Assembly (NCBI GenBank): GCA_964607825.1
Contig: CAZSNA010000002.1
Span: forward strand, 39,770-103,769
DNA: 64,000 bases
Source: an uncultured Fibrobacteraceae bacterium
GTDB taxonomy: Bacteria; Krumholzibacteriota; Krumholzibacteriia; LZORAL124-64-63
Reading direction: 5' to 3'
Numbering within the stretch: the first letter of the stretch is position 1; each line of letters opens with the position of its first letter. The translations under genes and the position numbers were made by a program. Below the pieces are notes generated by a model, which was not told where the DNA came from, did not search any database, and saw nothing but the letters and a program-made list of their open reading frames with translations. This document shows, piece after piece, positions 11,658-31,929 of this stretch.

Positions 11658-12026
11658 GAAATCCCCCCCGTTGGAGTGAAGCATCAGCAGGGCGACGCCG
11701 AACCGGCGTCACCGACCTGTAGGAAAACGGGCGATATCAACAGCCGTCCGGGCGAGTTCCGCGTTCGCGGAGGGACGGCGGCGAATCAAGGCGTGGGCGA
11801 TCGCGAGATGGTGCCATATCGGAAGCGTCTTGTCAAATTCCCCTTGTTCGTTAAAGGAGGATTTTGTCGATCCGCTCACAATGTCGCCGGTCGGCGCCGC
11901 ACGGGATCGACATTTTTCTTTCATCTTCGATATGGATATGCAATACTCCGAACCCTATCCCATACCCCTCTCGCCCAACAGGACCCTGCCGGTCTGTCGC
12001 CCGATTCCGGCGAAAGGCGGCATGAC

Positions 12027-12566: not shown

Positions 12567-12586
12567 CGACGCTCCGGCGCATGGAA

Positions 12587-12612
12587 AAGGGCGGGCCGCT
12601 CGGCCCGCCCTT
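12587..12612. terminator. GC-rich hairpin terminator between convergent genes
   Basis: AAGGGCGGGCC-GCTC-GGCCCGCCCTT, a perfect stem with an A-run upstream. Confidence 0.55.
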
Positions 12613-12630
12613 CGTCCGTCCGGTCTCGGC

Positions 12631-16223: not shown

Positions 16224-16404
16224 GAACGACCTTCGGCTCGGGTGATGAACGGCCAGGCGCACCATTGTACCCCTTCCCGGTCGGGCCTGTGTATGACGAA
16301 TCTCGGCGTATCCGGCGCCGGGCCTCTCCGTCCGCGTAACGTCCGCGTAACGCAGCCGGCGTATCTTCGATCACGCGTTGCAGCTGATCCGTCGGCGAAA
16401 GGAC

Positions 16405-19400
16405 ATGTCCATGCGGTGTCTGTTCAATACTCTCGTTGCTCTCCTGATCATCGGCGTCGTCCTGCAGCTGGGCTGCGGTTCGTCATCCACGCCGACGGAG
16501 CCGGCTCCGGACCCGGAGCTGGTCGATCTGGCCGGTTCGGTCGCGGGCCATGACGCCGCCGACTTGACGATTCAAAGCTCCATCGGCGAATGGCCGGTGG
16601 GCGCGGACGGGGCCTTCACCGTCTCGGTACCCGCCAGCGGCGGCTGCCAGCTGGCCATCGTACAGTCGCCCGACGAGACCCCGGTCCTGCTGGGCTGGCT
16701 CGGCGAGTCGCGCCGGACCGTCGATCATCGGTCGACGGCCGAGGTCCTGGCCTACTTCGCCCTGGGCGGCTACCTCTTGCCGTTGGACCTCCAGATCGTG
16801 CTCATCGAGGCTCTGGAACAGGACGCGGGGGTGGACGACCTGGCCGCGGCCATCGAAGCCGCCCTGGCGGACGACGCCGCGAGCCTCGTCGATCACGACT
16901 CCGCGGGCGCCCAGGCCATCCGCGACGCCATCCTCGCCCTCTCGGCCCGCCTGGAACAGCTCTACGGCGCGGCGGCGCCGGGGGACAAGGCGATGCAGAT
17001 CAGCCCGTCCGACGCTCGCAGCGGCATCCACGTCCTGGCCGACGGCTCCCGGATCAACACGGTGCAGATCGTCAACGACTACCGCCGACGCAGCTACGCC
17101 GAGATCGGGCAGGACTCCTGGGTCCGGGAGGACGACGGCCAGACGGTGACCACGGGCACGTCCCACGAGGACTCGCCCCAGTGGGTCGACCCCACAAACG
17201 GCGTCGGCGAGGGTGTCCTGAACGTGACCGAGGACATCTTCAACGGCATCTACGACGTGGGGACCTTCGCCTACCAGCCGGTGCTGGCGGGCTCGTTCAC
17301 CCTACCCGTCCCCGAGGGGGCCTCCAGCGCCACCTACACGATCACCATCGTCGGTCCCGGCGCCGGCCTGGGCGACCTGCAGACGTTGACGCCGGAACAG
17401 CAGGATCAGGCCCTCTTCGTCACCGCCTACTCCCTGGTCACCGACCTGATCATCCCGGCGATGATGAGCATCATCATACCGGTCAGCACGGCCGATGCGG
17501 GGGCGACCGACGCCTTCACCCACGTCCTGACGTCGCCCGACGGGATCGCGATCCTGCAGGACATCACCAACCTCCTGCTGGCCGAGCCCGATCTGGTGTC
17601 GGACCTGCTCAACGGCGAGTTCGTGCAGGCCCTGACACGCTCGTGGGACACCATCATCCAGGGCGGCGCCTTCCAGACGGCGGCCATGAACTTCTTCGGC
17701 TACGCGATCCTGCACCTGGAGAGCCAGGGCGTGCTGAGCATGACCCAGGTCAACGCCGCCATCACCACGACCTCCACGATAGCCACCGTCTTCCGGGGAC
17801 TTGAGATCGCGAACCTCATCCTCGCCGCGGGCGATCTGGGCGTGGTCATCGCCCACATGGGCCTGTCGAACATGGCCGACGTGTGGACGATCACCGTGTT
17901 CCCGCCGGAGGTGCGCCTGTCGCCGGCGCTCAGCCGCATCGAACCGTTCGGGACCCAGACCCTGACCGCGGCCGTCCCCGAGCTGACCGGCAGCTCCTCG
18001 GACGTGACCTTCAAGTACCGCTGGAACTGCACGGGCCGGGCCGGCGTCATCGCCGACGCCGCGGGCCACTCAGGCACCAGCTTCGAGAGCAGTTACGAGT
18101 TCGTCTCCTACATCGCCGAGGCCGGCATCCCCGGCAACGACCAGGTGTCGGTGACGGTGACCCAGGTCGTCACCGGCGCCGGCGGCACGCAGGAATCGGA
18201 GATCGGCTCGGCCTCGGCGACCGTCATCGTGGGCGGCAACAGCACCTGGATCAGGCCCGAGGAGACGGACCTGCAGCCCGACGAGACGGTGACCCTGACC
18301 CTGTCGGTCTTCGTGGACGAGGACACGGGCGACCCGGCCGACCTGACCTACCAGTGGACCTGCGACGAGTCGTTCGGGACCGTGATCGCCGGCGGCACGC
18401 CGAGCGACTCCACGCTGACCTACCGGGCGGGATTCAACGCCGCCGAGGTCGACGAGATCGTCACCGCCGAGGCCTTCCTGCCCGGCGACGGAGGTCCCGA
18501 ATCCCAGGGCGAGTCCACCGCGATCCTCGCCGTGGCGCCGCCGGAACTGAGGATCACGCCCGTCGCGCCCATCGTGCTGCCCGAGGAATCGATCACGCTG
18601 ACGGCCAACGTCACGCCGACGCCCGACGGCACGCTGACCTACGTCTGGTCCTGCACCGACGACTACGGCGTCCTGAGCGGCTCCGGCGTCAGCGTCGACT
18701 ACGTCGCCGGCACCGACGATGGCCACGATATCGTGGAGGTCGAGATCACGCTGGCGCCCCCCGGCGGCGGGTCGGTGGTGCTGGGCACCGCGAGCGTGGC
18801 CGTCGAGGTGGACGAGCCCGTGCCGGGCGAGGCCTGCGTGCTCGAACTGGATACGATCAACAGCATCATGTACATCGACCCCACCGGGTATCGCTACTTC
18901 GACGTGGAGGTCCGGGACTGCTTCGACGAGCCCGTGGAGGGCGAGACCGTCACGCTGAGCATCGAGGGACCGGGGCACTTCGACGACACGGTCCTGGTCA
19001 CCGGTGCGGACGGTCGCGCCGACACGATCCTGCACGGCGACGCCATGGGCGCGGCCCGCATCACCGGCGAGACCAGCAACGGCGTCGTCGATGTCGTCTA
19101 CTGGGTCTTCGGCGGCGAGGTCGACGTGCTCCCGACCGAAGGGGTCCTGAGGACCGACAACGACGTCGTCGAGCTGGCCCTGACCCTCACGTCCGGAGAC
19201 ATGTTGGGCGCGCGGCTGGACTACGGCTGGACCGTCAGCCAGACGACCGTGGACAACTGGCACCACTACGCCGGCGACCTGGTCGTGAACGAATCCGATC
19301 CCACGCGCGCCACCCTCTACGCCGGCTGGGCTCCGGATCCCCCCGACATCATCCGGGTCGTGGCCGGAGCCTACGCCTACTGGGGCGAACAGCGCATCGG

Positions 19401-19899
19401 TCTGGGGCACGGCTTCTACGAGTTCACCACCACGTACAACCCCACGTCGGTCTCCGCCTCGGTCAATGTCCATATGTGTGAAGATCCCGGAGCGGGCTGG
19501 TACCGTGCGAAGGTCGACGGCCATTTTCAATGGGACGCCGCCGAGGGTGATTATTACCGCTACTTCCTGTATCACGAGGACTGCGAATCGGGCCCCTACG
19601 AGATGGACTTCATCGAAGTCGGCACGCTGAGGGGTATCCTCTGGTCCGATGAGTACCCGGACGACCACCCGTGCTGGTTGCCGGACAGGACGAAGGCCAC
19701 ATACTGGATGTTCACCGCAAATGCGTCGTTCGACGACCCGGACGATCGCGCGGCCTGGATCGACGCGCAGCGACAGGAAGCCCTGAGCATCATGCAGCCC
19801 TACAGCCTGGAGTACCAGGCGATCCCCGCGGACTGGCCGTCCGACCTGATCTACGGCGTGGTGGGGAGTGTGATGTTCCAGTGGAACTGTCCGGATTAG
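16405..19899 (+). CDS. very large lipoprotein with tandem Ig-like modules (hypothetical)
   Basis: ATG 16405 after AAAGGA. Lipobox VVLQLGC|GSS. Three ~100-aa repeats carry the motifs FKYRWNCTG / LTYQWTCDE / LTYVWSCTD. A Big_1/invasin-like module is present (VEGETVTLSIEGPGHF...GADGRADTILHGDAMGAARITGE). Confidence 0.7.
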   Translation: MSMRCLFNTLVALLIIGVVLQLGCGSSSTPTEPAPDPELVDLAGSVAGHDAADLTIQSSIGEWPVGADGAFTVSVPASGGCQLAIVQSPDETPVLLGWLGESRRTVDHRSTAEVLAYFALGGYLLPLDLQIVLIEALEQDAGVDDLAAAIEAALADDAASLVDHDSAGAQAIRDAILALSARLEQLYGAAAPGDKAMQISPSDARSGIHVLADGSRINTVQIVNDYRRRSYAEIGQDSWVREDDGQTVTTGTSHEDSPQWVDPTNGVGEGVLNVTEDIFNGIYDVGTFAYQPVLAGSFTLPVPEGASSATYTITIVGPGAGLGDLQTLTPEQQDQALFVTAYSLVTDLIIPAMMSIIIPVSTADAGATDAFTHVLTSPDGIAILQDITNLLLAEPDLVSDLLNGEFVQALTRSWDTIIQGGAFQTAAMNFFGYAILHLESQGVLSMTQVNAAITTTSTIATVFRGLEIANLILAAGDLGVVIAHMGLSNMADVWTITVFPPEVRLSPALSRIEPFGTQTLTAAVPELTGSSSDVTFKYRWNCTGRAGVIADAAGHSGTSFESSYEFVSYIAEAGIPGNDQVSVTVTQVVTGAGGTQESEIGSASATVIVGGNSTWIRPEETDLQPDETVTLTLSVFVDEDTGDPADLTYQWTCDESFGTVIAGGTPSDSTLTYRAGFNAAEVDEIVTAEAFLPGDGGPESQGESTAILAVAPPELRITPVAPIVLPEESITLTANVTPTPDGTLTYVWSCTDDYGVLSGSGVSVDYVAGTDDGHDIVEVEITLAPPGGGSVVLGTASVAVEVDEPVPGEACVLELDTINSIMYIDPTGYRYFDVEVRDCFDEPVEGETVTLSIEGPGHFDDTVLVTGADGRADTILHGDAMGAARITGETSNGVVDVVYWVFGGEVDVLPTEGVLRTDNDVVELALTLTSGDMLGARLDYGWTVSQTTVDNWHHYAGDLVVNESDPTRATLYAGWAPDPPDIIRVVAGAYAYWGEQRIGLGHGFYEFTTTYNPTSVSASVNVHMCEDPGAGWYRAKVDGHFQWDAAEGDYYRYFLYHEDCESGPYEMDFIEVGTLRGILWSDEYPDDHPCWLPDRTKATYWMFTANASFDDPDDRAAWIDAQRQEALSIMQPYSLEYQAIPADWPSDLIYGVVGSVMFQWNCPD

Positions 19900-19970: not shown

Positions 19971-20173
19971 GCTATGCCCTTGTGGTGACATGACATAATG
20001 GCAGCCGCTGGTCGCCCGTTGTACTCAGGTAAGAGTGTCTGATTCCTAACTCATTCTTTGTAAACGATTTACACGCAATCTCCCTTCCGGCCGTCTCCGG
20101 CACGCCCCCTGCAATACCCTTGAGACGACCCATCCGCGCTGATGCGCTTTCGGATAGAGAGAGGGAGAGCCCC

Positions 20174-22792
20174 ATGAAGAACCTGACCGTCAACGCCGCC
20201 GAGACCCTGCAGCGCGCCCAGTCCCGCGCCTACGAGACCGGCCACCCCGAGCTGGAGCCCCTGCACCTGCTGTGGGCCCTGCTGGCCGAGACCGGCGTCG
20301 CCGGCAGTGCCCTGCGCAGCCTCGAACTCGATCCCCGGCTCGTGCTGCGCACCGTCGAGGGCGAGCTGGCCAACCTGCCGACCGTCGAGCAGAAGGACGT
20401 GCCGGCGCCCGGCCGCGACCTGCAGCAGGTGTTGCTGGAGGCCCAGTCCCTGGCATCGCAGTCTTCCGGAGGCATGGTCGGCACGCGCGAGTTGCTGCTG
20501 GCCGTCGCCGCGGGCAACGGTCGCGCGGGCAGCGTGCTGAAGACCTTCGACGTCACGGCCGACAAGCTCGCCCGGGCCCTCGAGTCCGTCGGCGCCACCG
20601 GCGCCTACCAGGGCGACCAGGAGCCCGAGGTCGGCGGCGAGTCCGCCCTGGACCGCTACGCCCGCGACCTCTGCGCCGCCGCGCGCGACGGCAAGATCGA
20701 CCCGGTCATCGGCCGCGACGAGGAGATCCGCCGCGTGGTGCAGATCCTCTCGCGCCGCACCAAGAACAACCCCGTGCTCATCGGCAGCCCCGGCGTGGGC
20801 AAGACCGCCGTGGCCGAGGGCCTCGCCCGCCGACTGGTGGCCGGCGACGTGCCCGTCGGACTGCAGGGCAAGACCCTCTATACCCTGGACATGGGCGCCC
20901 TGCTCGCCGGCGCCAAGTACCGCGGCGAGTTCGAGGACCGGCTCAAGGGCGTGATCAAGGAAGTGACCGGGCGCGAGGGCGACACGCTGCTCTTCATCGA
21001 CGAGATGCACACGCTGGTCGGCGCCGGCGCCGCCGAGGGCGCCATGGACGCGTCGAACATCCTCAAGCCCGCCCTCGCCCGCGGCGAGTTGCACTGCATC
21101 GGCGCCACCACCCTCGACGAGTACCGCCGCCACATCGAGAAGGACCCCGCCCTGGAGCGGCGCTTCCAGCCGGTGATGATCGAGGAGCCCACGCGCGAGC
21201 AGGCCGTGGCCATCCTGCGCGGCCTGAAGGAGAAGTACGAGGTGCACCACGGCATCCGCGTGTCCGACTCGGCCGTCGTGGCGGCGGTGGACCTGTCGAG
21301 CCGCTACATCAGCGACCGGCAGCTCCCGGACAAGGCCATCGACCTGATGGACGAGGCCGCCTCGGAGCTGCGCATGGAGATCGACTCGGTGCCCGCCGAG
21401 GTGGACGTCCTGCAGCGACGCCGCGACCAGCTCGAGATGGAGAAGCTCGCGCTGGAGAGCGAGACCGAGGCGCAGGCCGTCGCCCGCCGCGAGGCCATCG
21501 AGCGCGAGCTGGCCGAGATGGAGGACGAGCTCGCGTCCCTGCGCGCCCGCTGGGAGCAGGAGAAGGCGGCCATCGACGACATCCGCGCCCTGCAGGCGGA
21601 GCAGGAGCGCCTCGGCACCGGGATCGAGGACGCCCAGCGCCGCGGCGACCTGGCGCAGGCCTCGCAGCTCAAGTACGGCCGCGCCAGCGAGCTGGAGACG
21701 GAGATCGACGCGGCCCGCGCGCGCCTGGTCGAGCTGCAGGGCGAGCGTCCGCTGCTGCGCGAGGAGGTGGAGGAGGAGGACATCGCGCGCCTGGTGGCCA
21801 AGTGGACCGGCATCCCGGCCCAGCGTTTGGTGGAGGACGAGACCGCCAAGCTGCGCGCGCTGGAGTCGCGCATCGCCGGGCGCGTCGTGGGCCAGGACCA
21901 CGCCGTCGCCCAGGTGGCGCGCACCGTGCGCCGCGCCCGCGCCGGCCTGACCGACCGCGACCGCCCCCTCGGATCGTTCCTGTTCCTCGGCCCGACCGGC
22001 GTAGGCAAGACCGAGCTCGTGAAGACCCTCGCCGCCGAGCTCTTCGGCGACGAGCGCCACATGGTGCGCCTGGACATGTCCGAGTACATGGAGCGCCATA
22101 GCGTGGCCCGCATGATCGGCGCCCCCCCCGGCTACGTGGGCTTCGAGTCGGGCGGACAGCTCACCGAGGCGGTCCGCCGCCACCCCTACACGGTGATCCT
22201 GCTGGACGAGGTGGAGAAGGCGCACCCCGAGGTGATGAACGTCCTGCTGCAGCTGCTCGACGACGGTCGCCTGACCGACGGCAAGGGCCGCGTGGTCGAC
22301 TTCCGCAACACCCTGGTGGTGATGACCAGCAACCTCTGCCAGGAGGAGCGTTTCGCGCCCCGCGCGGACCTCGACGAGGCCGGCCGCCGCGAGCAGGAGC
22401 AGGAGCTGCTGCAGTCGCTGGCCCAGCACTTCCGGCCCGAGTTCCTCAACCGCGTCGACGCGGTGGTGAGGTTCAACGCGCTCACGCGCGAGCTCATCCG
22501 CGTCATCGTGGAGCTGGAGCTGGCCAAGGTGGACGCCTCGCTGCGCGAGCAGCGCGTGCGCCTGAGCTGGACGCCGGCCGCGGTGGACCGTCTGGCCGAG
22601 CTGGGGTTCGACCCGCAGTTCGGCGCGCGGCCGGTGAAGCGCGTGATCCAGCGGGAGGTGCAGGACCGTCTGGCGGACGGGATCCTGGCGGGCGAGGTGT
22701 CGGCGGACGGGGAGGTGGAGCTGGACGTGGACGGTGACGGGTTCACGCTCGGCGCGGTGCTGTGCGGGGAGGTGAAGGAGGGGGAGGCGTGA
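20174..22792 (+). CDS. clpB: ATP-dependent chaperone/disaggregase ClpB
   Basis: ATG 20174 after GAGAGGGAGAG. Clp N-domain repeats, two AAA+ modules ([16 protein letters not shown]), a long coiled-coil middle domain, and [10 protein letters not shown] near the C-terminus. Confidence 0.95.
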
Positions 22793-22826: not shown

Positions 22827-22855
22827 AAGAGCGGGGCCTCGCGGCCCCGCCCTCT
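22827..22855. terminator. GC-rich hairpin terminator between convergent clpB and the TIR gene
   Basis: GCGGGGCC-TCGC-GGCCCCGC core with an extended stem and an A-run upstream. It is near-identical to the hairpin at 24808-24831. Confidence 0.55.
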
Positions 22856-22880: not shown

Positions 22881-24698
22881 TCATGACTCAATGAAGTAGA
22901 TCAACCGGTCGTTGAAGTGGATGTCGCTCAACTCGGGTGGCGGCTCCGGCACCGGGGGCCCCTCCAGGATCACCGGCAAGATGTCCGGTGGCTTCTCCTC
23001 GATGCCCCTCTTGCGCTCGAGAGCGTAGAGCACTTCCCGCTTCACCCACTCCGAGGCTTTGGCCGCCGAGGACCAGAAGAGCAGGAAGAGGTCCGCGTCG
23101 TCGATACGGCGGTAGAGCTCCTTCTCCCAGCGAGCGCCCGGGTCCAGGGAGAGCAGGTCCTGGAAGTACTCGATGTTCACCCCCGCGAGCATCTGGACCC
23201 GCTTGAGAACCTCGTTGCGGTCGGGTGTTGCGTATGAGACGAATGCGCTTTCGTACCTCTTGAGTCGACCTGACGCCGCGGATGCTGGCTCACGATCGGC
23301 CACCTCGCCCGCCCGATCCGCGACGCCGATCCGGAAGTGCACCCTGCCGCAGGGAACTCCGTCGCACAGTACTCGCAGGCAGCCGATGATCGTCTCACCG
23401 GCGAAGTCGTCCGGCACGTCGAGCTGGAAGGTCGCGCGCTTGGGATCGCCGCGCCAAATGAAGGATCGTACCGGATCGTCGATCCGCATGCCTGGAGACG
23501 ACAACTCCAGGCTGAGACGCTGGCCCCGCTCGACCAAGTCCTCCAGGCCTGATACGCCGAGCCGTTTCGCTTCCGGATCCATCTTGCGGTTGAGCGACTC
23601 CACGTGTTCCGCCTGGTCCGGTCGATGCGCCCAGGCCTCGACGATCGTGCTGCAGCCCATTCGGACACGGGGTTGGGAATAGACCGTGCAGTCGAGGTCG
23701 TCGCTGAGGGTGTCCGGTTCAACCTCGGCTCGTGCCGGAGTGATCGTTCCGAAGGGTTCGGTAGGGATGAGGAGAGGATGCCAGCCCTGAGGTCCCGTTC
23801 TGGGTGGAAGGACCAGGTCGCTGGAGCGAGGCAGCACGAGCGGCTCACTGATGGTGCTTGCTTCCAACGGCCCGCTCGGTCGAACGGCCATCGCCTCTTC
23901 GCCCGGTGCATCGTCCACGCCGCCGGATGAGCCCGGATCATCCGTGGTACCGACCATCGCGGAGATCCGGATCTCGCCCTGTGCGCCGGCAGCGGTCGCA
24001 TTGCCGAACAGCAGCGTTCCCTGCCCATCGAAGGAATCCACTAGATACTTCGTCGCGTCCGCCATTTCACTCAAACGAAGGTCGGAGGCCGCGATCGTGA
24101 TGATGATGGTTCCGTGGCGATCATCCAGTTCGCGTGCAATGGAGTCCGCGAGATGGCGTGCGCCCACAGTGCTCCGATCTGGGCCGGAGGAGACAACGGA
24201 ATGATGACGCCAGATGGAATCGCCTACATGAGGGCCCAGGATGTCCGCCAGGGGGGCGTTGATCTGGTCGGGTCCCAGCAGCGAGGCCAGGATGGAGGCG
24301 CACCCTGCCGGATCGGCGCCGTCATCAAGCAGCAACAGTCCGCCTGAGACCTCACGGAGCGCCTTGCGATGAAGAGCCGATGCCGGTGACTCGTCCGTCA
24401 CCCGCGGAGAGATGAAGTACGCGGATGCGGGAAGCTCCTCGGAGGCGAGAGCGAGCTGGCAGGCCATCATGCCGCTCTCGTCCACTTCCAGCTCCAGCAT
24501 CGCTACAATCCCCGCCCGTGCATCCAGGCGTTTTTTCAGGGGGATGTCGGACCCGGTCGCTTTCTCGAAGTCGTCCGGCTGCAGTTGGAGTAGATCCTCG
24601 GCGTCAAGGCCGTTATCGCGCAACGTGGTGAGCACCTGCTCTCCGTAGCCGCCGATCCCGACGAACAGAACACCTGTGGATCCCTTGTGCTCGTGCAT
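22881..24698 (-). CDS. degenerate FtsZ/tubulin-like domain - beta-sandwich - TIR domain protein
   Basis: ATG 24698 after GGGAGG. The N-terminus reads like FtsZ with degraded GTP motifs: VLFVGIGGYGEQVL resembles VIGVGGGGGNAV, LLLLDDGADPAGCASILA resembles FIAAGMGGGTGTGAAPVIA, and GTIIITIAASDLRLSEMADATKYL...GEIRISAMVGT resembles GVLVNITAGFDLRLDEFETVGNTI...DELRVTVVATG. The C-terminal 124 aa (nt 22884-23255) form a TIR domain: AFVSYATPDR...DLFLLFWSSAAKASEWVKREVLYA, with the conserved W..E glutamate. Codon usage is visibly less GC-biased than in neighbouring genes. Confidence 0.85.
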   Translation of the reverse strand: MHEHKGSTGVLFVGIGGYGEQVLTTLRDNGLDAEDLLQLQPDDFEKATGSDIPLKKRLDARAGIVAMLELEVDESGMMACQLALASEELPASAYFISPRVTDESPASALHRKALREVSGGLLLLDDGADPAGCASILASLLGPDQINAPLADILGPHVGDSIWRHHSVVSSGPDRSTVGARHLADSIARELDDRHGTIIITIAASDLRLSEMADATKYLVDSFDGQGTLLFGNATAAGAQGEIRISAMVGTTDDPGSSGGVDDAPGEEAMAVRPSGPLEASTISEPLVLPRSSDLVLPPRTGPQGWHPLLIPTEPFGTITPARAEVEPDTLSDDLDCTVYSQPRVRMGCSTIVEAWAHRPDQAEHVESLNRKMDPEAKRLGVSGLEDLVERGQRLSLELSSPGMRIDDPVRSFIWRGDPKRATFQLDVPDDFAGETIIGCLRVLCDGVPCGRVHFRIGVADRAGEVADREPASAASGRLKRYESAFVSYATPDRNEVLKRVQMLAGVNIEYFQDLLSLDPGARWEKELYRRIDDADLFLLFWSSAAKASEWVKREVLYALERKRGIEEKPPDILPVILEGPPVPEPPPELSDIHFNDRLIYFIES

Positions 24699-24807
24699 GC
24701 AGACCTCCCGTCGAGATGACGAAATGCGTGGGCGGTCCCCAGGATATCATGATGCGGTCTGGGGATATACCTCACGTACTCTGCGTCGGTCCGTAGCTGC
24801 AAAACAA

Positions 24808-24831
24808 GGGCGGGGCCTCGCGGCCCCGCCC
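24808..24831. terminator. GC-rich hairpin terminator after the LTD gene / upstream of the TIR gene
   Basis: GGGCGGGGCC-TCGC-GGCCCCGCCC, a perfect 10-bp stem preceded by AAAACAA. Confidence 0.55.
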
Positions 24832-24855
24832 TCTCTCGTACCCATCCGGGACGAC

Positions 24856-27540
24856 TTACTTGATCAACGTCATCTTCTCCGCCTGCGTGAAGCCGGAGCC
24901 CGTCTTCAGGCGGTAGAAGTAGGTGCCGCTGTTCACCGGGCGTCCGCTCTCGTCGCGGCCGTCCCAGCTGTAGACGTTCAGGTACTCGCCGGCGGTCAGG
25001 TGGGCGTCGACCACCTTGCGCACGTGGCGGCCGCGGATGTCGAAGACGTCCAGGGCGACGTGGTCGTCGCGCTCCAGCATGAAGCTGAAGCTCGTCTTCG
25101 GGTTGAAGGGGTTGGGGTAGTTGGCGCCCAGCGCGGTGGCGAGCACGGGCGTGTCGCCGATGCCGGTGGCGTCGTAGTTGGCCGCGCCCGGGGTGCCCTG
25201 GTCGCCGTCGCCGAAGGTCGGGCCGCCGGCTCCCCAGTTGGAACCGACGTTGTTGTCGCCCGAGGTGAACTGCATCGACTGGCCGTTCGGATCCGGCCAC
25301 AGCGTGCCGCCGTCCCAGGCCACGTAGTCGATCTCGGCCATGGTGGCGTCGTAGAGGATCAGCTCGTCGGCGCCGTTGCTCAGGCCGATGCCGCTGTAGA
25401 CGTAGTCCGCCGTCACGCCCTGGGTGGCCATGGTGTCGGCGTTGACGCAGAACACCATGTACTCGCCCGGGTTGATGACCAGCGGGCCGCCGTTGGCGAT
25501 CAGGTGCGAGTCGAAGTCCGCGTCGGCGATGGTCCAGCCTTCCAGGTCCACGGCCTCGGTGTCGGCGTTGTAGAGCTCGAACCACTCGCCGCCCGAGTCG
25601 TAGACGACGTAGGGGTTCTGCATGATCTCGTTGATCACGATGGCGGGCAGCTCGGGCACGTCGATGACCGCGGTGGTGTTCGCGGCGATCGGGTTGCCGT
25701 GCTGGTCCTCCACGTTGTTGACGCGCACGGTGTGCTCGGGGACGCCCAGGGTCGAGGCCAGGGTCAGCACCACGTAGGTGGGGTCGCCCTGCACGACGGC
25801 CTCGGTCACGGCGATGGTGTTGGCCGGCGTGGCCGTCTCGTAGACCTCGTAGTTGAGCGCGTCGGCGCCGGTGATCGCGTCGATGGGCTCGTTGTAGAGC
25901 AGGGTGACCGAGGTCGTCGCGGTCAGCGTGGCGCTGGTCAGGGTCGGCGGATCGAGGTCGGGATCCTGGCCGTTGTTGGTGATGTCCGAGAGGAGGCCGA
26001 CGATGATCTGGCCCTGCCCGGAGTAGGTGCCGCCTGCGCCGGCGGCCACCAGCTCGTCGCCGATCAGCCAGGTCTCCAGGCCCGGGGCGACGTCGTCGTC
26101 GATGCGGATCACCACGTCGCCCGAGCCGTCGTTGATCGTGAAGTTGTGGGCCGGGTTGCCGCCGGCGGTGGTGGCGATGGCCGTGATCGGGCCGGTGGTG
26201 CCGGTGTAGGTGCCCTCGTTGTTGGGCAGGGCGGCGTTGGCGGTGGTCTTGATCGTCGGGCTCAGCGCCGGGTTGCCGGTGCTGACCAGCTCGACCTCGT
26301 AGCTCACCAGCTCCAGCGTCGTGAAGTAGTAGTCCACGCGGCCGGTCACCTTGACGATGTTCGAGGTGTCGTTCAGCAGCTCCATGCCGGTGCTGTAGTA
26401 GGTGCCGTAGATGTTCAGGCCCCGGCCGGAGGCGTCCTGCACGTAGGCGCTGACGGAGGTGCCGTCGGCCTGGTAGTTGCCGGGGATGAAGACCTGGCCC
26501 TGGATCATGATCGTGGTGCCGTCGAAGCCGGCCGAGTCGGCGTGCACGAAGGAGATGGGCGTGATGGTCTCGGGCGCCACGGCGTAGGTGTAGAAGCTCA
26601 GCGGAGCGTCCGACGGGTTGGTCGTGGTCTGGGTGTCGTCGTCGGTGGCCGAGACGTAGTAGTCGACCGTCGAGCCGTCGGGGGCGCCGGGAATGGTGCC
26701 CGTGTAGGTGTCGCCCGTGTCCAGGGCCATGGCCACGGTCGAGAAGCCGCCGCCGTCGACCTGGTAGTGGATGCTCGCCGACGTGACGATGCCGTCGTTG
26801 TCGGTGATGTCGGCGTAGACCGTGACGGTCTCGCCGGGGATGGGCAGCAGCGAGCGGTGATAGACGTTCGCGACCGCGGGCGGCACGGGCTGCACGCCGC
26901 CGTTGCTGGCGCCGGGGGTCGGGTCCTGCGCGTTGTACGCGGTGGTGACCAGGGCGCCGCCGCCGCCGTCGGGGATGCGCTGGTTGGAGTGGCCGGTCCC
27001 GTCGCCGTTCATGCGCTCGTCCACCTGGGGCTGGCCCGGCGTCAGGACGTCCAGCAGGCCGGTGTCGTCGGCGTCGCCGGTGTCGTAGACGATGGCGTCG
27101 ACCAGGTTGGTCGCGGTGACGGCCGTGCCGACGGGGAAGTCCGTGTCGTGGCCCGTGTACAGGGCGACGGCGTCGGCGCCGTTCTGGATCAGGTTCGTGT
27201 CGGGGGTCACGTCCCAGTCGCAGTTGGCGACGTTGGCCGCGTCGCCGCAGACCACGAAGAAGCCGTTCGCGTCACAGACGTAGCCGTCCAGGTCGAAGGC
27301 GGCGTACGACGTGTCGGAGCTGCCGTTGAAGAGGACCAGTACGAGACCGTCCAGCGACTCGCTGGGAGCACCGTAGAGCTCGATGAACTCCGCGCTGTCC
27401 GTGCTGACCTGGTCGGCGTCGACCTCGTTGATCAGTACGACGGCCTGGGCGCTCGCGGCGCCGAGGACGAGGGCGAGCAGCAGCGTCAACCAGACCTTGG
27501 CGGCGCTCCCGAATCGTGTCGATGTCTGCATGGTCATCAT
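24856..27540 (-). CDS. secreted lamin-tail-domain (LTD) / OB-fold protein with T9SS-type CTD (ExeM/NucH-like architecture, no nuclease domain seen)
   Basis: Signal peptide ...WLTLLLALVLGAASAQA. Two LTD modules (VVLINEVDADQV..AEFIELYG and IVINEIMQNP...GEWFELYNAD). OB-like segment (IMIQGQVFIPGN...VKVTGRVDYYFTTLELV). C-terminal NYPNPFNPKTSFSFML...GTYFYRL...MTLIK. Confidence 0.8.
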   Translation of the reverse strand: MMTMQTSTRFGSAAKVWLTLLLALVLGAASAQAVVLINEVDADQVSTDSAEFIELYGAPSESLDGLVLVLFNGSSDTSYAAFDLDGYVCDANGFFVVCGDAANVANCDWDVTPDTNLIQNGADAVALYTGHDTDFPVGTAVTATNLVDAIVYDTGDADDTGLLDVLTPGQPQVDERMNGDGTGHSNQRIPDGGGGALVTTAYNAQDPTPGASNGGVQPVPPAVANVYHRSLLPIPGETVTVYADITDNDGIVTSASIHYQVDGGGFSTVAMALDTGDTYTGTIPGAPDGSTVDYYVSATDDDTQTTTNPSDAPLSFYTYAVAPETITPISFVHADSAGFDGTTIMIQGQVFIPGNYQADGTSVSAYVQDASGRGLNIYGTYYSTGMELLNDTSNIVKVTGRVDYYFTTLELVSYEVELVSTGNPALSPTIKTTANAALPNNEGTYTGTTGPITAIATTAGGNPAHNFTINDGSGDVVIRIDDDVAPGLETWLIGDELVAAGAGGTYSGQGQIIVGLLSDITNNGQDPDLDPPTLTSATLTATTSVTLLYNEPIDAITGADALNYEVYETATPANTIAVTEAVVQGDPTYVVLTLASTLGVPEHTVRVNNVEDQHGNPIAANTTAVIDVPELPAIVINEIMQNPYVVYDSGGEWFELYNADTEAVDLEGWTIADADFDSHLIANGGPLVINPGEYMVFCVNADTMATQGVTADYVYSGIGLSNGADELILYDATMAEIDYVAWDGGTLWPDPNGQSMQFTSGDNNVGSNWGAGGPTFGDGDQGTPGAANYDATGIGDTPVLATALGANYPNPFNPKTSFSFMLERDDHVALDVFDIRGRHVRKVVDAHLTAGEYLNVYSWDGRDESGRPVNSGTYFYRLKTGSGFTQAEKMTLIK

Positions 27541-27702: not shown

Positions 27703-27733
27703 CCCTTAGAGTCGGGTGGTCCCATTAGAGTCA
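27703..27733 (+). promoter_or_regulatory. direct repeat CCC(A)TTAGAGTC x2 immediately upstream of the SLOG gene (candidate operator)
   Basis: CCCTTAGAGTC at 27703-27713 and CCCATTAGAGTC at 27721-27732. These are the only A/T-containing repeats in the short leader before the GGAG RBS and GTG at 27746. Confidence 0.3.
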
Positions 27734-27745
27734 TGGAGCCATATC

Positions 27746-28273
27746 GTGAATGATGACAAGCAGTTGAGCCTCGGCATCACGGGGCACCGGCACCTGGGGG
27801 ACCCCGAGGCGGTGGCCCAGGCCCTGGACCGGGCGGTCGCGACGCTGGCCGGACCGGCGCCCCCGCTCTACAGCGCACTCGCCGAGGGCTCCGATCGCCT
27901 GGCGGCCCGGTCGGTGCTGGCGGCCGGCGGCCGCCTTCACGTCGTGCTCCCCCTGGCCCCCGACGACTACCGGAACGACTTCGCCGACGACGCCTCGTGG
28001 GCCGAGTTCAACGCGCTGCTGTCGCGCGCCGAGACCGTCGAGACCGTGCCGCCCCAGCCGGACCGCGGCACGTCCTATCTCATTGCCGGTCGCCGTGTGG
28101 CGGACCTGTGTGATATCCTGATCGCCGTCTGGGACGGTCGTCCCGCACGTGGTCGCGGCGGCACCGCCGAGATCGTGGCCCATGTCCGGTCGGCGGCGCG
28201 CCCCCTGTATTGGATCGACAGCGAAGATCCCGCGCGCGTGGTGCGCGAACGCATGCCTGGAGATATCCGGTAG
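27746..28273 (+). CDS. SLOG-superfamily (Smf/DprA-LOG, YpsA/LSDAT-like) predicted nucleotide-ligand-binding protein
   Basis: GTG 27746 lies 7 nt after GGAG; an alternative GTG exists at 27716. Motifs: LGITGHRHL, SALAEGSDRLAARSVL, LHVVLPL, CDILIAVWDGRPARGRGGTAEIV. Confidence 0.7.
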   Translation: MNDDKQLSLGITGHRHLGDPEAVAQALDRAVATLAGPAPPLYSALAEGSDRLAARSVLAAGGRLHVVLPLAPDDYRNDFADDASWAEFNALLSRAETVETVPPQPDRGTSYLIAGRRVADLCDILIAVWDGRPARGRGGTAEIVAHVRSAARPLYWIDSEDPARVVRERMPGDIR

Positions 28274-29338
28274 GTGTCCATGTTCGAGCCTCGCCCCGTC
28301 AAGACCATCGCCGCCGACCAACGGGATGCGGAGGTGCGTCGACGCGCCGAGGGGTACATGAAACTGCTCGCGGCCTGCTGCGAGGAGCGGCCACTCCCGA
28401 AGCAGGTCTGCGCCCGTCTGGCCGAGCGGCTCGAAGCGACCGCCGCACATTTCCTGCCCCGCTACGTCGAGGTCAACCACGCCGCCATGAGCTTCCAGGC
28501 GCGCTATCGTCGCGCCTCGATCGCCGTCTTCGTGCTGGCCGCCGCGGCGCTGATCGTGGTGGCCGGCCAGCACGTGTTCCACGGTCCGCGCTGGCTGGTG
28601 GGCCTGGAGGTGGCCGCCATCGCGACGGTCCTGGCCATCTTCCACCTGGGCAACCGCTTCGGCTGGCACCGCAACTGGGTGGACTACCGTTTCCTCGCCG
28701 AGCGCCTGCGCACCGGCCTGTTCGTCGCCTTCCTCAGCGGCAAGACCAACGCCGACGACGAGCTGCACTGGTCCGACCGACTGATCGAGGAGTCCTGGTG
28801 CCTGGACGAGGTCGCAGACCTGTGGCGCGGCCGGCCCCGCTTCGCGACCCCGCCGCCGGAAGCGGTCCCGGTCCTGCAGGACTTCATGCGGCGCGCCTGG
28901 CTCGACATCCAGCGCGGTTTCCACGAACGCAAGGAGCGCGGCGCCCTGCACACCCACGAACGCATCTCCCTGGCGAGCGAGACGCTGTTCTGGCTGACCT
29001 TCATCGCGGCGATCCTGCACCTGTTGCCCCACGACTGGCTGCACGCCGCGCGTCTCGACGGCCTGTTGACCGAGCCGCGTCTCACCTTCGCCGTGATCGC
29101 CCTGCCCGCCTTGGGCACGGTCTTCTCCGGCCTGCGCGGGCATTTCGAGTTCAAGAAGCAGTCCGTCCGGGCGGGGGTCATGGTGCGGTATCTCGAGCAT
29201 CTGGATGGGAAGCTGAGCAACGTGCAGGATCTCGAGGATCTCCTGCGCGTGGTCTGGGAGACGGAGCTGCTGATGCTGCAGGAGAACGCCGGGTGGCATC
29301 TGAATACCATGTCGAAGCCGATCGAGGTGGAGGCCTGA
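28274..29338 (+). CDS. membrane protein with two tandem 2-TM SLATT-like modules (predicted pore-forming effector)
   Basis: GTG 28274 abuts the upstream TAG; an alternative ATG exists at 28280. First TM pair ASIAVFVLAAAALIVVAG / WLVGLEVAAIATVLAIFHL, then WHRNWVDYRFLAERLR. Second TM pair TLFWLTFIAAILHLL / LTFAVIALPALGTVFSGL, then an amphipathic helix. Confidence 0.65.
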   Translation: MSMFEPRPVKTIAADQRDAEVRRRAEGYMKLLAACCEERPLPKQVCARLAERLEATAAHFLPRYVEVNHAAMSFQARYRRASIAVFVLAAAALIVVAGQHVFHGPRWLVGLEVAAIATVLAIFHLGNRFGWHRNWVDYRFLAERLRTGLFVAFLSGKTNADDELHWSDRLIEESWCLDEVADLWRGRPRFATPPPEAVPVLQDFMRRAWLDIQRGFHERKERGALHTHERISLASETLFWLTFIAAILHLLPHDWLHAARLDGLLTEPRLTFAVIALPALGTVFSGLRGHFEFKKQSVRAGVMVRYLEHLDGKLSNVQDLEDLLRVVWETELLMLQENAGWHLNTMSKPIEVEA

Positions 29339-29361
29339 GGGAGAAAGCGAGAGGTTGATCC

Positions 29362-31929
29362 ATGCCTAAGCCGAGAATCCTGGTCGCGGGCGACATCGTC
29401 AAAGACAACCACATCTACGTCGGCGAGCGGTCGTATCCCTCCCTGGACGAGATGGGCACCTATCGTCGTCAGATCGACGGGGGGGCCAGGTTGCTCTGCA
29501 GCCTCGTCGAGAAGGTGTACAAGGAAGCGGCGGAGTCGGTCGAGCCCTACATGAGTTCAGGGCCTAACGACAGGGCCTACGCTGTGTGGAATGTCGTCAA
29601 GCAGGCCAAGCTCTCAGACAAGGAAGACAAGAACGAGACCTGGCGCGTCTCCCAGCTTCTCGGCTACAGCCCCAAGCCGGAATGGAGGAACAACGGTCTT
29701 CCCAAGGGTGAGTGTCCCGACTGCGATATCGCGGTTCTGGATGACGCCGGTCTGGGGTTCCGCTTCGCGAAGAGGACGTGGCCCAAGTTCATGCTTGATG
29801 ACGGCGAGCCCCATCACCCGGACTGGATCATCCTGAAGATGAGCCACCCCGTGCTCGAGGGGGATCTATGGTTCGAGCTCCGCAAGCGCTACGTCATGGA
29901 CAGGGCGGAGGGACACAAGATCGTCATCGTGGTGGGGGCGGAGGATCTTCGACGGAGCGGCGTCACCATCTCGAGCGGGCATTCGTGGGAACACAGCGTC
30001 CAGGACCTGCTCGACGGCTTCAAGGACAATCAGATCTTCGCCGGCGTTCGCGAGTGCGGCCACTTCCTCGTCACCTTCCAGAGCGAGGGCGCGCTCTGGA
30101 TCGACAACACGGGCGACGCTCCGAGGGCCAAGCTCGTCTTCGACCCGAAGCGGCTGGAGGGCGACTATGAGGACGAGTTCGAGGGCCAGATGGTCGGAGC
30201 CGGGTCCTGTTTCACGGCCGGCCTGGTCGGCGCCTTTCTCGAGTCGCCCGACTCCGCCGCCATGGAGCTGGGCATCAAGCGCGGACTCCATGCGGCCAGG
30301 GTCCTCTGGGAAAGAGGCCATGAACCCGTCAGCCGGAACAGGGCGCCCGGCTATCCCTTTTCCGCGGTGCGCAAGGCCCTGAGCAGCAAGCCCGACACGT
30401 ACACCTGCTCCGAGGTTCCGCACGCGGCTTTCCGCGAGGGAACACACGACTGGTCGTTCCTCGAAGACGGCGGGCACCATGGAACGCCCATGTACGGCCA
30501 GGCCCGGCGACTGGCCCTGAGCGGCTTCAAGGATCTGAAAGGCATCCCCTACGGGGAGTACGGCGCCCTCCTCACGGCGGACCGCGGCGAACTGGAGAGC
30601 TACAACTCGCTGCGCCGTCTCATCCTGTCGTACAGGGACGATACCGGGGCCAAGAAGCCGCTCTCTATAGGCGTGTTCGGTCCGCCGGGCGCAGGTAAAT
30701 CGTTCGGCGTGGAAGAGATCGCGAAGGGGACTCTCGGCCAGGACGTACCCCTGCTGGTCTTCAATCTCTCGCAGTTCGACATCAACACCCCGGACATGCT
30801 GCACGGAGCCCTGCACCAGGTTCGCGACGAGGCGATCAAGGGCAGCACTCCGGTCGTCTTCTGGGACGAATTCGATTGCCGAGGTCTGCAGTGGCTCCAG
30901 TACCTGCTGTCGCCCATGCAGGACGGTTCGTTCGTCGACGATCAGATCACACGTGTCCTGGGGAAGTGCCTGTTCGTGTTCGCCGGCGGCGTGATGAGCT
31001 CGCGCCAGGAGTTCGTGACGGCGGCGGAATGGGAGAAGAAGGGCATCGAGGAATTCGAACAGCTCAAGGGACCGGACTTCGCCAGCCGGCTGCACGGATA
31101 CCTCGACGTGCTCGGCCCCAATCGCCGGGAACCGCGGACGAAGGACGAATACGGTCGGGACCTGTTGGCCCGGCCCGACCTGAGCTTCCCGGTCAGGCGG
31201 GCGATTCTCATCCGGGGTCTGCTGAGAGTGGGTAAATCGGACGAACTGGACATCGACCCCGGACTCCTGAACGCCTTGCTCAAGGTGCGGTCCTACAAGC
31301 ACGGTACCCGATCCCTGCAGAACCTGCTGAAGATGCTGTCCAAGAACCCCGAGGGCCGGTACATGCCGTCGAGCCTGCCGCCGGCGGAGCAGCTCCGACT
31401 TTTCGTCGACGAGAAGGAGTTCATGGAGCATGTCGTCGAGTACGAGTCGTTCCAGACCTGTTGCCACGAGCTGGCGGTGTCCGTCCACGATCACTACTGG
31501 GACGACAAGATCAAGAGGGGGTGGGGCAAGGAAGAGGACCGGGAGCCGTTCGAGCAGCTGAGCGAATCCTTGAAGGCCGACAACGTCGCCGCCGCACTGC
31601 GGATCCCGGAGATCCTGGCTCTTGTGGGGCTTCGTCTCGTCAGGAAGGAGTCATCGTTCGAGGGAGACCCCAGGGAGATCAAGACCATACTCGAGAACAA
31701 CATCGAGCTGCTCGCGAGAGCCGAGCACATCCTCTGGCGACGATACCGAACCCTGAGCGGCTGGAAAGTGCACAAGAAGAGCAAGACGGACTACGTCTGG
31801 AAGCGGCACAAGGATCTGATCGATTTCGACGATCTCACTCCGGACAAGCAGGAGTACGATCGGGACAGCGTCCGGGCCTATCCGGCCAAGGCCGACAAGG
31901 CCGGGTTCAAGATCGTCAAGGAATCCTGA
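29362..31929 (+). CDS. PfkB/ribokinase-like - AAA+ ATPase - RyR-domain fusion protein
   Basis: ATG 29362 after GAGAGG. N-terminal ILVAGDIVKDNHIY...GGARL...VGAGSCFTAGLVGAFL (GAGD-type motif with D replaced by S). Walker A GPPGAGKS (30679-30702) and Walker B VVFWDEFD (30853-30876). C-terminal RyR-type repeats: HDHYWDDKIKRGWGK... and ILWRRYRTLSGWKVHKK..KRHKDLIDFDDLTPDKQEYDRDSV. Uses AGA/AGG/AAA/TTG codons that are rare elsewhere in the window. Confidence 0.8.
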   Translation: MPKPRILVAGDIVKDNHIYVGERSYPSLDEMGTYRRQIDGGARLLCSLVEKVYKEAAESVEPYMSSGPNDRAYAVWNVVKQAKLSDKEDKNETWRVSQLLGYSPKPEWRNNGLPKGECPDCDIAVLDDAGLGFRFAKRTWPKFMLDDGEPHHPDWIILKMSHPVLEGDLWFELRKRYVMDRAEGHKIVIVVGAEDLRRSGVTISSGHSWEHSVQDLLDGFKDNQIFAGVRECGHFLVTFQSEGALWIDNTGDAPRAKLVFDPKRLEGDYEDEFEGQMVGAGSCFTAGLVGAFLESPDSAAMELGIKRGLHAARVLWERGHEPVSRNRAPGYPFSAVRKALSSKPDTYTCSEVPHAAFREGTHDWSFLEDGGHHGTPMYGQARRLALSGFKDLKGIPYGEYGALLTADRGELESYNSLRRLILSYRDDTGAKKPLSIGVFGPPGAGKSFGVEEIAKGTLGQDVPLLVFNLSQFDINTPDMLHGALHQVRDEAIKGSTPVVFWDEFDCRGLQWLQYLLSPMQDGSFVDDQITRVLGKCLFVFAGGVMSSRQEFVTAAEWEKKGIEEFEQLKGPDFASRLHGYLDVLGPNRREPRTKDEYGRDLLARPDLSFPVRRAILIRGLLRVGKSDELDIDPGLLNALLKVRSYKHGTRSLQNLLKMLSKNPEGRYMPSSLPPAEQLRLFVDEKEFMEHVVEYESFQTCCHELAVSVHDHYWDDKIKRGWGKEEDREPFEQLSESLKADNVAAALRIPEILALVGLRLVRKESSFEGDPREIKTILENNIELLARAEHILWRRYRTLSGWKVHKKSKTDYVWKRHKDLIDFDDLTPDKQEYDRDSVRAYPAKADKAGFKIVKES

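Follow-up and report, generated by a model that had tools for sequence, protein, structure and literature searches.

A predicted FtsZ-derived domain fused to a TIR domain in a putative bacterial conflict protein

Bacteria, plants, and animals all use TIR proteins as a common currency of immunity. As a rule, TIR enzymes become active through ordered assembly, as in SARM1, TIR-SAVED, and SPARTA. For most bacterial TIR sensors, the trigger that is recognized is an open question. Here we describe a gene from an uncultured Fibrobacteraceae bacterium, contained in a 64 kb stretch of contig CAZSNA010000002.1 (GenBank assembly GCA_964607825.1; the whole stretch is called the window below), whose 605-amino-acid (aa) product carries an FtsZ-like domain at its N-terminus (the N-domain) and a TIR domain at its C-terminus. 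The closest described immune systems are those of the Thoeris group. Systems made of a TIR and a SLATT protein have been verified as type VII Thoeris, with ThsH as the effector and cADPR (cyclic ADP-ribose) as the signal, and in type III Thoeris a SLOG effector accompanies several TIRs (Yirmiya et al., 2025; 10.64898/2025.12.03.692087), a survey in which tubulin has 0 mentions. The window resembles types III and VII in that its TIR protein bears an extra putative sensing domain and SLOG and SLATT proteins are encoded nearby (directly adjacent in two other loci, L007 and L110), and the weak best matches of its TIR domain are ThsB and ThcB models. It differs in that these matches score far below the family thresholds (23 vs 220 bits), in that the TIR and SLOG/SLATT genes do not form one operon (3 kb and an unrelated gene separate them, and their strands are opposite), in that SLOG and SLATT are combined, with a RyR-AAA protein as the third gene, and in that an FtsZ-derived domain together with a beta-sandwich forms the putative sensor, an arrangement not reported for ThsB in the literature searched.

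Other comparisons are set by the way in which the TIR domain is controlled. In SPARTA TIR-APAZ, TIR-SAVED of CBASS, SARM1, and TIR-STAND/NLR proteins, as here, a TIR domain with a conserved catalytic Glu is fused to a domain that controls oligomerization; in the window protein, however, the putative controlling domain has an FtsZ fold, and Argonaute, SAVED, ARM/SAM, and STAND NTPase domains are absent from the protein by Pfam and PADLOC. In the part of the work by Kaur, Burroughs, Iyer and Aravind (2020; PMC7159879) considered here, inactive copies of cellular enzymes, including cell-division domains, serve as effector domains or are proposed to be decoys or dominant negatives in conflict systems dependent on nucleoside triphosphates (NTPs). 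The likeness, as far as that part goes, lies in the recruitment of a catalytically dead housekeeping copy into a conflict protein, but the domains described there sit on vWA-MoxR (VMAP) or GTPase-centered multi-gene systems without a TIR cassette, and that part describes no FtsZ-TIR fusion. A link between SLOG proteins and division has been drawn as well: overproduced YpsA, a SLOG protein, disrupts FtsZ rings, and the YpsA clade is linked to NAD and ADP-ribose (Brzozowski et al., 2019; PMC6459960). The initial annotation knew of no such architecture, and it is indeed rare. Database labels are generic, and full-text literature searches, in which most matches were judged by title or abstract, brought up no account of FtsZ or tubulin fused to TIR. 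A putative sensor domain of this kind on a TIR conflict protein is not described in the literature searched, and natural relatives that grade from intact to degenerate lend it support.

The FtsZ-like domain and its TIR cassette

The open reading frame (ORF) is exactly as first called, with an ATG start in the ORF list, and the alignment of its first part along FtsZ, which the initial annotation had made by eye, is confirmed along three independent lines, by profile-profile alignment, by an AlphaFold2 (AF2) model searched with Foldseek, and by natural fusions in which an intact FtsZ precedes the same beta-sandwich and TIR domain. Single-sequence searches are marginal, and the FtsZ signal needed a profile of three orthologues (the window protein, P0002, and P0003) and structure prediction. 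The Pfam FtsZ_C model matches the window protein below threshold (E 0.05, 14.4 bits vs a cut-off of 27), Pfam Tubulin (PF00091) does not match it, and the curated thresholds of Tubulin and FtsZ_C (PF12327) are both failed. Its best match among PDB sequences by phmmer is FtsZ 4e6e, at E 0.75; BLASTP of the N-domain against P0140, one of the intact fusions, is not significant; and hhalign with the window N-domain sequence alone against FtsZ gives E 0.064. With the three-orthologue profile against an FtsZ profile, hhalign returns a colinear alignment of query positions 12-234 with FtsZ positions 7-289 at 79.5% probability and E 1.5e-5, against E values of at least 0.16 for reversed and column-shuffled controls. 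The AF2 model, made from an input alignment without any FtsZ sequence, reaches a predicted local distance difference test score (pLDDT) of about 85-95 over residues 10-250, and all 50 matches listed by Foldseek for this part of the model in the PDB are FtsZ from bacteria or archaea, the lowest E being 2e-13, with about 300 aligned columns and template modeling (TM) scores of 0.5-0.6 normalized to the target. Because the two-subdomain FtsZ fold, with its Rossmann-like GTPase subdomain, core helix H7, and C-terminal subdomain, is kept while the sequence definition of the family fails, the N-domain is, on the predicted structure, an FtsZ-derived pseudo-GTPase. It differs from FtsZ in lacking the tubulin signature and the T3 loop, in being about 55 residues shorter, and in being encoded outside the dcw cluster and joined to an effector. 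Derivation from a phage, or mimicry specifically of the phage tubulins PhuZ and TubZ, was considered and is not supported, because these tubulins are poorer structural matches than cellular FtsZ (E of 3e-7 or higher for models of phage FtsZ and PhuZ) and the N-domain family was not found in IMG/VR viral contigs; a search of 185,579 species-representative genomes did not find it either.

How far the nucleotide-binding site has decayed differs from loop to loop. The GTP-binding glycines had been called lost, which holds for the T4 tubulin signature, (G/A)GGTG(S/T)G in its general form, where 0 of 7 positions are identical and the replacing stretch varies among the three orthologues, and does not hold for the T1 loop, whose glycines are partly kept. 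The T3 loop, which contacts the gamma-phosphate, is deleted in the alignments, and the T2 Asp is kept as D42. In the T7 loop, which in FtsZ completes the GTPase site of the adjacent subunit, N147 and D152 remain while Pro takes the place of the middle Asp; P0003 has the full N-x-D-x-x-D pattern (N-A-D-A-E-D). P143, N147, and D152 are invariant. The motifs SGPDR (SGxDR in FtsZ) and GEIRISAM of the C-terminal subdomain are also kept. Altogether 17 positions are invariant in the three orthologues and a true FtsZ, among them G14, G16, G19, D42, N147, D152, and G172-x-D174-R175. Judged by these motifs, the N-domain should not bind or hydrolyze GTP in the FtsZ manner, because the T3 loop and the GGGTGTG signature are gone, and GTP-driven self-polymerization of the window protein appears unlikely because T3 and T4 are lost; for the intact FtsZ-TIR relatives such polymerization is plausible.

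Between the N-domain and the beta-sandwich lies a disordered linker of about 70 aa, within which one stretch stands out from otherwise divergent sequence by the pattern D-x-x-P-x-x-E-A-M-A-(V/T). We take its form in P0003, SDIPADEAMAT, to be reminiscent of the FtsZ C-terminal peptide DIPAFLR, and the motif may be a relic of that peptide, a former docking site. A beta-rich middle region had been noticed, and it is indeed a confidently predicted beta-sandwich behind that linker. Foldseek gives it weak, generic beta-sandwich matches (best E 2.4e-4). The best TM-scores of the beta-sandwich are to the ZU5/UPA region of UNC5b (0.73) and to chains B and D of the NLRP1 FIIND (0.53-0.59), with E around 1e-3. 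ZU5/UPA and FIIND domains adjoin death-fold oligomerization modules in animal immunity. The resemblance of the modeled sandwich to UPA/ZU5 (TM 0.53-0.73) is a lead and no finding.

The C-terminal TIR domain with its conserved Glu, clear already by eye, is matched by Pfam TIR_2 over residues 486-595 (E 2.5e-17, 63.9 bits vs a cut-off of 28), and its AF2 model shows alternating strands and helices at pLDDT 80-94. E555, the Glu of WVKRE, is shared by all 40 cassette sequences and aligns with the Glu of LKEL in SPARTA TIR-APAZ and with that of WVKKEI in the TIR-TPR protein 9m0n, these two being the closest solved structures by sequence. In TIR NADases the Glu at this position is catalytic. Among models of known defense systems, PADLOC gives ThsB1 at E 1.5e-5 and 22 bits for the TIR domain, PADLOC and NCBIfam together add a weak TIR-NLR match, and the PADLOC models cover neither the N-domain and middle domain nor the SLOG, SLATT, and RyR-AAA proteins.

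The beta-sandwich and TIR domain recur together as a cassette. The window protein belongs to it, with a sandwich of about 130 aa followed by TIR_2 and the tail EGPPxPxPPxELxHLHFND, and its cassette is 43-51% identical to 37 others. A profile search of 1.84 billion representative proteins finds the cassette in 1469 of them at E<=1e-3, and among the best 150 of these 1469 the sandwich is matched in varied N-terminal contexts. In species-representative genomes the cassette occurs at 248 loci, mostly in Acidobacteriota, filamentous Cyanobacteria, Planctomycetota, Chloroflexota, and Actinomycetota. Among the domains joined to it on the N-terminal side are Ser/Thr kinases (13 of 87), WD40, FHA, Hsp70, MshEN plus DUF4062, and RyR; FtsZ is the partner in 1 of 80 cassette loci, and some cassette proteins have short N-termini (P0004, 317 aa).

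Orthologues, intact fusions, and genomic setting

The degenerate FtsZ-TIR form is very rare. Full-length matches to the N-domain, linker, and beta-sandwich number two besides the window protein, P0002 and P0003, among the 1.84 billion representative proteins, and a search of 5.8 billion proteins found P0002 as the sole other degenerate orthologue. The exact window protein is present on 12 contigs of the public collection. Outside this group stand two intact fusions. P0140 (JGI, 685 aa) has an intact FtsZ (Pfam Tubulin 1e-45, FtsZ_C 6e-19; GGGTGTG and NVDFAD present) followed by the beta-sandwich and TIR, and P0151 (NCBI MFH1198525.1), which is 79% identical to it, is the only other such protein among the best 120 matches listed from the 5.8-billion-protein search. 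Both share the domain order and cassette of the window protein (44% identity over 275 aa), with the FtsZ-like domains colinear. They differ from it in keeping GGGTGTG and the T7 sequence NVDFAD, in passing the Pfam Tubulin and FtsZ_C thresholds, both of which the window protein fails, and in belonging to a low-GC lineage, in a TIR/STAND island next to an integrase. They also keep DIPA(I/V)IR; in P0140 this motif, DIPAIIRKG, stands between FtsZ and the beta-sandwich and resembles the FtsZ C-terminal peptide. In the databases the intact fusions are labeled "cell division protein FtsZ" and the degenerate orthologues "TIR domain-containing protein."

The three degenerate orthologues are syntenic, in the order M14 peptidases, clpB, the FtsZ-like-TIR gene, LTD gene, and, further on, serpin, HD, and sulfatase genes. 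Across the three genomes, amino acid identity and nonsynonymous divergence (dN) run from 85-87% and 0.08 for ClpB and 84-87% and 0.08 for the TIR domain, through 70-73% and 0.18-0.22 for LTD and 55-62% and 0.27-0.35 for the beta-sandwich, to 29-35% and 0.70-0.82 for the FtsZ-like domain. The N-domain thus evolves about 9 times faster than the TIR domain by dN. The ratio of nonsynonymous to synonymous divergence (omega) is about 0.6 for the N-domain and 0.1 for the TIR domain, rough values since synonymous divergence (dS) is near saturation; with dS of about 1 or higher, dN/dS cannot show positive selection at such divergence. The N-domain is not neutral, for its fold is confidently predicted, its frame is intact, and invariant motifs persist in it; even so, its rate of change far exceeds that of the remaining protein. 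A fast N-domain beside a nearly frozen TIR domain fits a sensor in an arms race.

In the window, the gene lies between clpB (20120-22792, plus strand, convergent) and the LTD gene (24856-27540, minus strand), which encodes a secreted LTD/FlgD_ig protein. It is the sole TIR gene of the 64 kb, and no integrases or transposases flank it in the window. Its GC content is 0.63-0.66. The less GC-biased codon usage that had been seen by comparison with clpB is borne out by the GC content at third codon positions (GC3), 0.76 vs 0.97 for clpB and 0.98 for LTD. Between the M14 peptidase genes and clpB, positions 16378-19899 (plus strand) encode a 1173-aa secreted protein with a signal-peptide-like N-terminus; the syntenic locus L008 has no counterpart of it at the matching position.

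Two near-identical hairpins had been described as bracketing the gene. The near-identity is real (28 of 29 nt), the second hairpin being slightly wider (24806-24834, not 24808-24831), and the bracket is not: these are ordinary terminators, the upstream one being the LTD terminator conserved in orthologous loci, and the downstream one differing in L008. As the hairpin at 24806-24834 terminates the LTD gene, the FtsZ-like-TIR gene has its own promoter region at 24699-24805. Scans for canonical terminators and promoters found nothing, and the hairpin at 22827-22855 was not flagged by them. Both hairpins are built on the palindrome GCGGGGCC-NNNN-GGCCCCGC with T-rich tails on the minus strand, and a related third copy lies 22 kb away at 786-805. 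Boundaries of an inserted element were considered and rejected on the conservation of the LTD terminator, the lack of conservation of the downstream hairpin in L008, and the similar hairpin at 786-805. The orthologous loci do not show the 28 of 29 nt identity of the two flanking hairpins.

Table 1. Features of the FtsZ-like-TIR gene and of its candidate partners. Coordinates are positions in the 64 kb window; those of the FtsZ-like-TIR gene are on the minus strand.
Feature	Position	Strand	Basis or remark
FtsZ-like-TIR ORF, 605 aa + stop	22881-24698	-	FtsZ-like domain, linker, beta-sandwich, TIR; orthologues P0002, P0003
Predicted FtsZ-fold pseudo-GTPase domain, residues 10-251	23946-24671	-	hhalign, AF2, Foldseek
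T1-loop remnant VGIGGYG, residues 13-19	24642-24662	-	aligns to IGIGGAG of P0140; G14, G16, G19 invariant
Lost tubulin signature, EVDESGM for GGGTGTG, residues 71-77	24468-24488	-	hhalign and MAFFT
T7-loop/H8 remnant PDQINAPLAD, residues 143-152	24243-24272	-	aligns to PGFINVDFAD of P0140
Disordered linker, residues 257-329	23712-23930	-	AF2 pLDDT < 50; about 70 aa
Linker motif DDAPGEEAMAV, residues 262-272	23883-23915	-	conserved in three orthologues; SDIPADEAMAT in P0003
Ig-like beta-sandwich with one inserted helix, residues 331-460	23319-23708	-	AF2 pLDDT 97; no Pfam family
TIR domain, residues 484-605; putative catalytic Glu555 at 23034-23036	22884-23249	-	Pfam TIR_2
Shine-Dalgarno GGGAGG, 5 nt 5' of ATG	24704-24709	-	read from sequence
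GC-rich hairpin, terminator of this gene (T-rich tail, minus strand), common to convergent clpB	22827-22855		sequence
Near-identical hairpin, terminator of the upstream LTD gene	24806-24834		homologous hairpin after LTD gene in L008, L001
YpsA/YAcAr-like SLOG protein, 185 aa, candidate partner	27716-28273	+	weak Pfam YAcAr match
DUF4231/SLATT membrane protein, 354 aa, candidate partner/effector	28274-29338	+	Pfam DUF4231; NCBIfam SLATT_1 41.3 bits vs cut-off 41
AAA + RyR-domain protein, 855 aa, third operon gene, candidate partner	29362-31929	+	Pfam RyR, AAA

The SLOG-SLATT operon as candidate partner

Beyond the LTD gene stands an operon for a YpsA-like SLOG protein, a SLATT membrane protein, and a RyR-AAA protein, with no TIR gene of its own. 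Neither these genes nor the wide spread of the cassette had been noticed in the initial annotation. The SLOG label is tentative, drawn from weak Pfam matches of family members to the YAcAr, YpsA, NDT, and DprA models; a profile of the SLOG family finds nothing significant among PDB sequences, the best match being a nucleoside 2-deoxyribosyltransferase at E 0.13. The operon (27716-31929) occupies a variable slot, in which L008 holds just two small genes. In L172, two genes 5' of the SLOG operon (577 and 503 aa) have signal-peptide-like N-termini, no TIR, and no homologue in the window.

The association that makes this operon a candidate partner is seen most directly at L007, the locus of the intact fusion P0151, where the FtsZ-TIR gene is preceded, at a distance of 30 nt, by a gene for a SLOG-SLATT fusion; the N-terminal half of this fusion is homologous to the window SLOG protein (E 4e-22) and its C-terminal half to the window SLATT protein (E 4e-21). 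Also in favor of the link, the same TIR-less operon is conserved, on a different contig, in the assemblies of orthologue P0003 (GCA_018814885.1), and the window has a single TIR gene. The surrounding segment (5112-20067 of L007, GCA_043808235.1) encodes a phage-type integrase, a TIR-STAND-TPR protein of 1059 aa, the SLOG-SLATT fusion, FtsZ-TIR, and a second TIR protein of 366 aa, together with a WD40 protein of 821 aa, a DUF4062-STAND protein of 684 aa, and another WD40 protein of 752 aa, and it has the look of a conflict island, either multi-TIR and type III Thoeris-like or STAND-rich. In L110 (551-6350), a SLOG-SLATT gene on the plus strand faces a minus-strand pair in which an FtsZ-like gene lies directly upstream of a gene for a protein with secreted repeats, a transmembrane (TM) segment, and a TIR domain, with a TIR-STAND gene next. 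This FtsZ-like protein is stand-alone and half-degenerate (FtsZ_C 4e-14, Tubulin below threshold; T1 GCSDMGC, T4 GEKSGTS), and L110 is an independent association of FtsZ-like and TIR genes.

Across 80 loci fetched for encoding the SLOG-SLATT family, TIR genes are present in the fetched sequence of 23, in 22 of these within 5 kb of the SLOG-SLATT gene, and full-length RyR-AAA homologues occur in at least 8. A cassette TIR adjoins a SLOG-SLATT fusion in L026; an RyR-AAA homologue lies beside a cassette TIR in L036; and in L164 an RyR domain is fused directly to the beta-sandwich-TIR cassette. In L079, a cassette-TIR gene is followed 4 nt downstream by a gene for a 1141-aa protein (10874-14296) with a SLOG-like N-terminus (E 5e-5), which by eye shows motifs of a patatin-like phospholipase (GGGFRAS ... 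DGG), carries TM helices at its C-terminus, and is a possible phospholipase effector activated by a TIR signal. SIR2_2-TIR proteins of about 470-480 aa are encoded beside SLOG-SLATT, directly downstream of it in L141 and L144 but upstream of it in L156, at a distance of a few kb, and in L159 and L136 DUF4062-TIR(-SPOR) proteins take the downstream position.

Proposed function and competing explanations

We propose that the window gene encodes a single-chain TIR conflict (immune) protein with a decayed FtsZ copy as its putative sensing module and an output that passes through SLOG and SLATT. A sensor or decoy function of the FtsZ-derived domain, driving a predicted catalytic TIR in a conflict role, seems fairly probable; the whole chain, output included, is put forward tentatively, as a reading in which doubt slightly outweighs confidence. 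The FtsZ-derived domain would be a bait or sensor, engaged either by an FtsZ-targeting phage protein or by the polymer of the cell's own FtsZ. Engagement would cluster the protein, and the TIR domains brought together would become active and cleave NAD+, as other TIR enzymes do. An ADP-ribose-derived signal would then be read by the YpsA-like SLOG protein and the response executed by the SLATT membrane protein, following the logic of Thoeris types III and VII. Such a signal is marginally the likelier TIR product, and that the output is read by SLOG-SLATT is possible though doubtful; direct NAD+ depletion would be the fallback output.

Several observations weigh against parts of this proposal. 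Its trigger, whether an FtsZ-targeting phage factor or the FtsZ polymer, is our pure inference. The SLOG-SLATT operon begins 3.0 kb from the FtsZ-like-TIR gene, on the opposite strand and with the LTD gene between, and in the two orthologous genomes (P0002, P0003) it is not within 10 kb of the gene. At the cassette loci, the SLOG-SLATT family lies within 10 kb in 3 of 80, so that the cassette does not generally need it; SLOG-SLATT as an obligate cassette partner was rejected on this count. The SLOG-SLATT-RyR/AAA operon may in turn be self-contained, because several such loci have no TIR. As for known systems, the NCBIfam model of the type III Thoeris protein ThcB4 gives 23 bits vs a cut-off of 220, and the ThsB models are likewise far below their thresholds. 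The gene is vertically inherited in its clade, as the gene order shared by three orthologous loci indicates, with no obvious mobile island, and the window gene appears not to lie in a mobile defense island. Finally, the rapid change of the N-domain, with its omega of about 0.6 and dS near saturation, could also be relaxed constraint.

Some of this evidence agrees with a stand-alone sensor-effector, in which sensing is FtsZ-derived as in our proposal but the clustered TIR itself depletes NAD+ and aborts infection, the SLOG/SLATT/RyR-AAA operon being an unrelated neighbor. The 77 of 80 cassette loci without the SLOG-SLATT family within 10 kb, the two orthologous genomes that lack those genes near the FtsZ-like-TIR gene, the existence of TIR-less SLOG-SLATT-RyR/AAA operons, the monocistronic gene with its own ribosome-binding site and terminator, and the presence of the NAD+-depleting SPARTA TIR-APAZ among the closest solved TIRs all speak for it. 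However, SLOG-SLATT recurs beside FtsZ-TIR (L007), beside FtsZ-like and TIR genes (L110), and beside other cassette TIRs, and a SLOG sensor needs a ligand producer, for which the window offers one TIR gene; we regard the stand-alone explanation as somewhat unlikely. A more specific form of our proposal takes the state of the division ring as the immune signal: the N-domain would dock through its conserved T7 face on the GTP-bearing end of the cell's own FtsZ filaments, or act as a decoy for phage proteins that attack FtsZ; templating by the cytoskeleton, in place of a nucleic acid or small molecule, would gather and activate the TIR domains, and their NAD-derived signal would open SLATT by way of the YpsA-like SLOG sensor. 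This version we consider unlikely.

A housekeeping role is quite improbable. The protein would then be a lineage-specific regulator of division or NAD metabolism, for instance a dominant-negative FtsZ cap with an NAD-sensing TIR and no immune function. Vertical inheritance at a fixed position between clpB and LTD in three genomes, the absence of flanking integrases and transposases in the window, and the ability of YpsA-clade SLOG proteins, linked to NAD and ADP-ribose, to disturb FtsZ rings (PMC6459960) are in keeping with such a role. Yet the GC3 of the gene is far below that of neighboring core genes (0.76 vs 0.97), the divergence of the N-domain is extreme for interaction with a highly conserved partner, and the company that the cassette keeps elsewhere (kinase, WD40, FHA, STAND-rich islands), like its phyletic pattern, is typical of conflict systems.

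Very improbable, too, is a self-polymerizing scaffold, the first option of the initial annotation, in which the N-domain would form head-to-tail filaments of the FtsZ type and so juxtapose TIR domains; the other option given there was that the domain monitors the cytoskeleton of host or phage. The FtsZ fold, the T1 glycines, and the N...D of T7 are kept, the intact FtsZ-TIR relatives probably polymerize with GTP, and TIR enzymes are generally activated by ordered assembly, but the T3 loop is deleted, T4 is replaced at 7 of 7 positions and varies among orthologues, so that nucleotide-dependent assembly is unlikely, and residues of the longitudinal interface change fast. As improbable is a decaying relic, the N-domain being a functionless remnant of an ancestral FtsZ-TIR fusion with the cassette alone functional, since, for all the low identity (29-35%), the omega of about 0.6, the lost catalytic motifs, and the cassette proteins that do with short N-termini (P0004), AF2 gives a confident compact fold from just three sequences, 17 positions are invariant through to a true FtsZ, omega is below 1, and three lineages show no frameshifts, stops, or large deletions.

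Returning to the proposed conflict protein, its putative sensing module is recognizably FtsZ, a target of several known phage-encoded division inhibitors, which makes for a concrete hypothesis of the trigger that can be tested. How assembly controls a TIR can be dissected in a natural series made up of an intact FtsZ-TIR fusion, the stand-alone, half-degenerate FtsZ-like gene of a TIR operon, and a fully degenerate fusion. Also defined here is a widespread beta-sandwich-TIR cassette without a Pfam family, and the YpsA-like SLOG-SLATT(-RyR/AAA) module, often found with TIR genes, extends the Thoeris-type repertoire. Were the guard or decoy reading wrong, what would remain is a rare but otherwise ordinary shuffling of domains on a TIR effector. 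Were the division-ring version true, the protein would guard the bacterial cytoskeleton much as guard and decoy receptors do in plants. The fusion suggests that bacteria can tie surveillance of the division machinery to NAD-based antiviral signaling.

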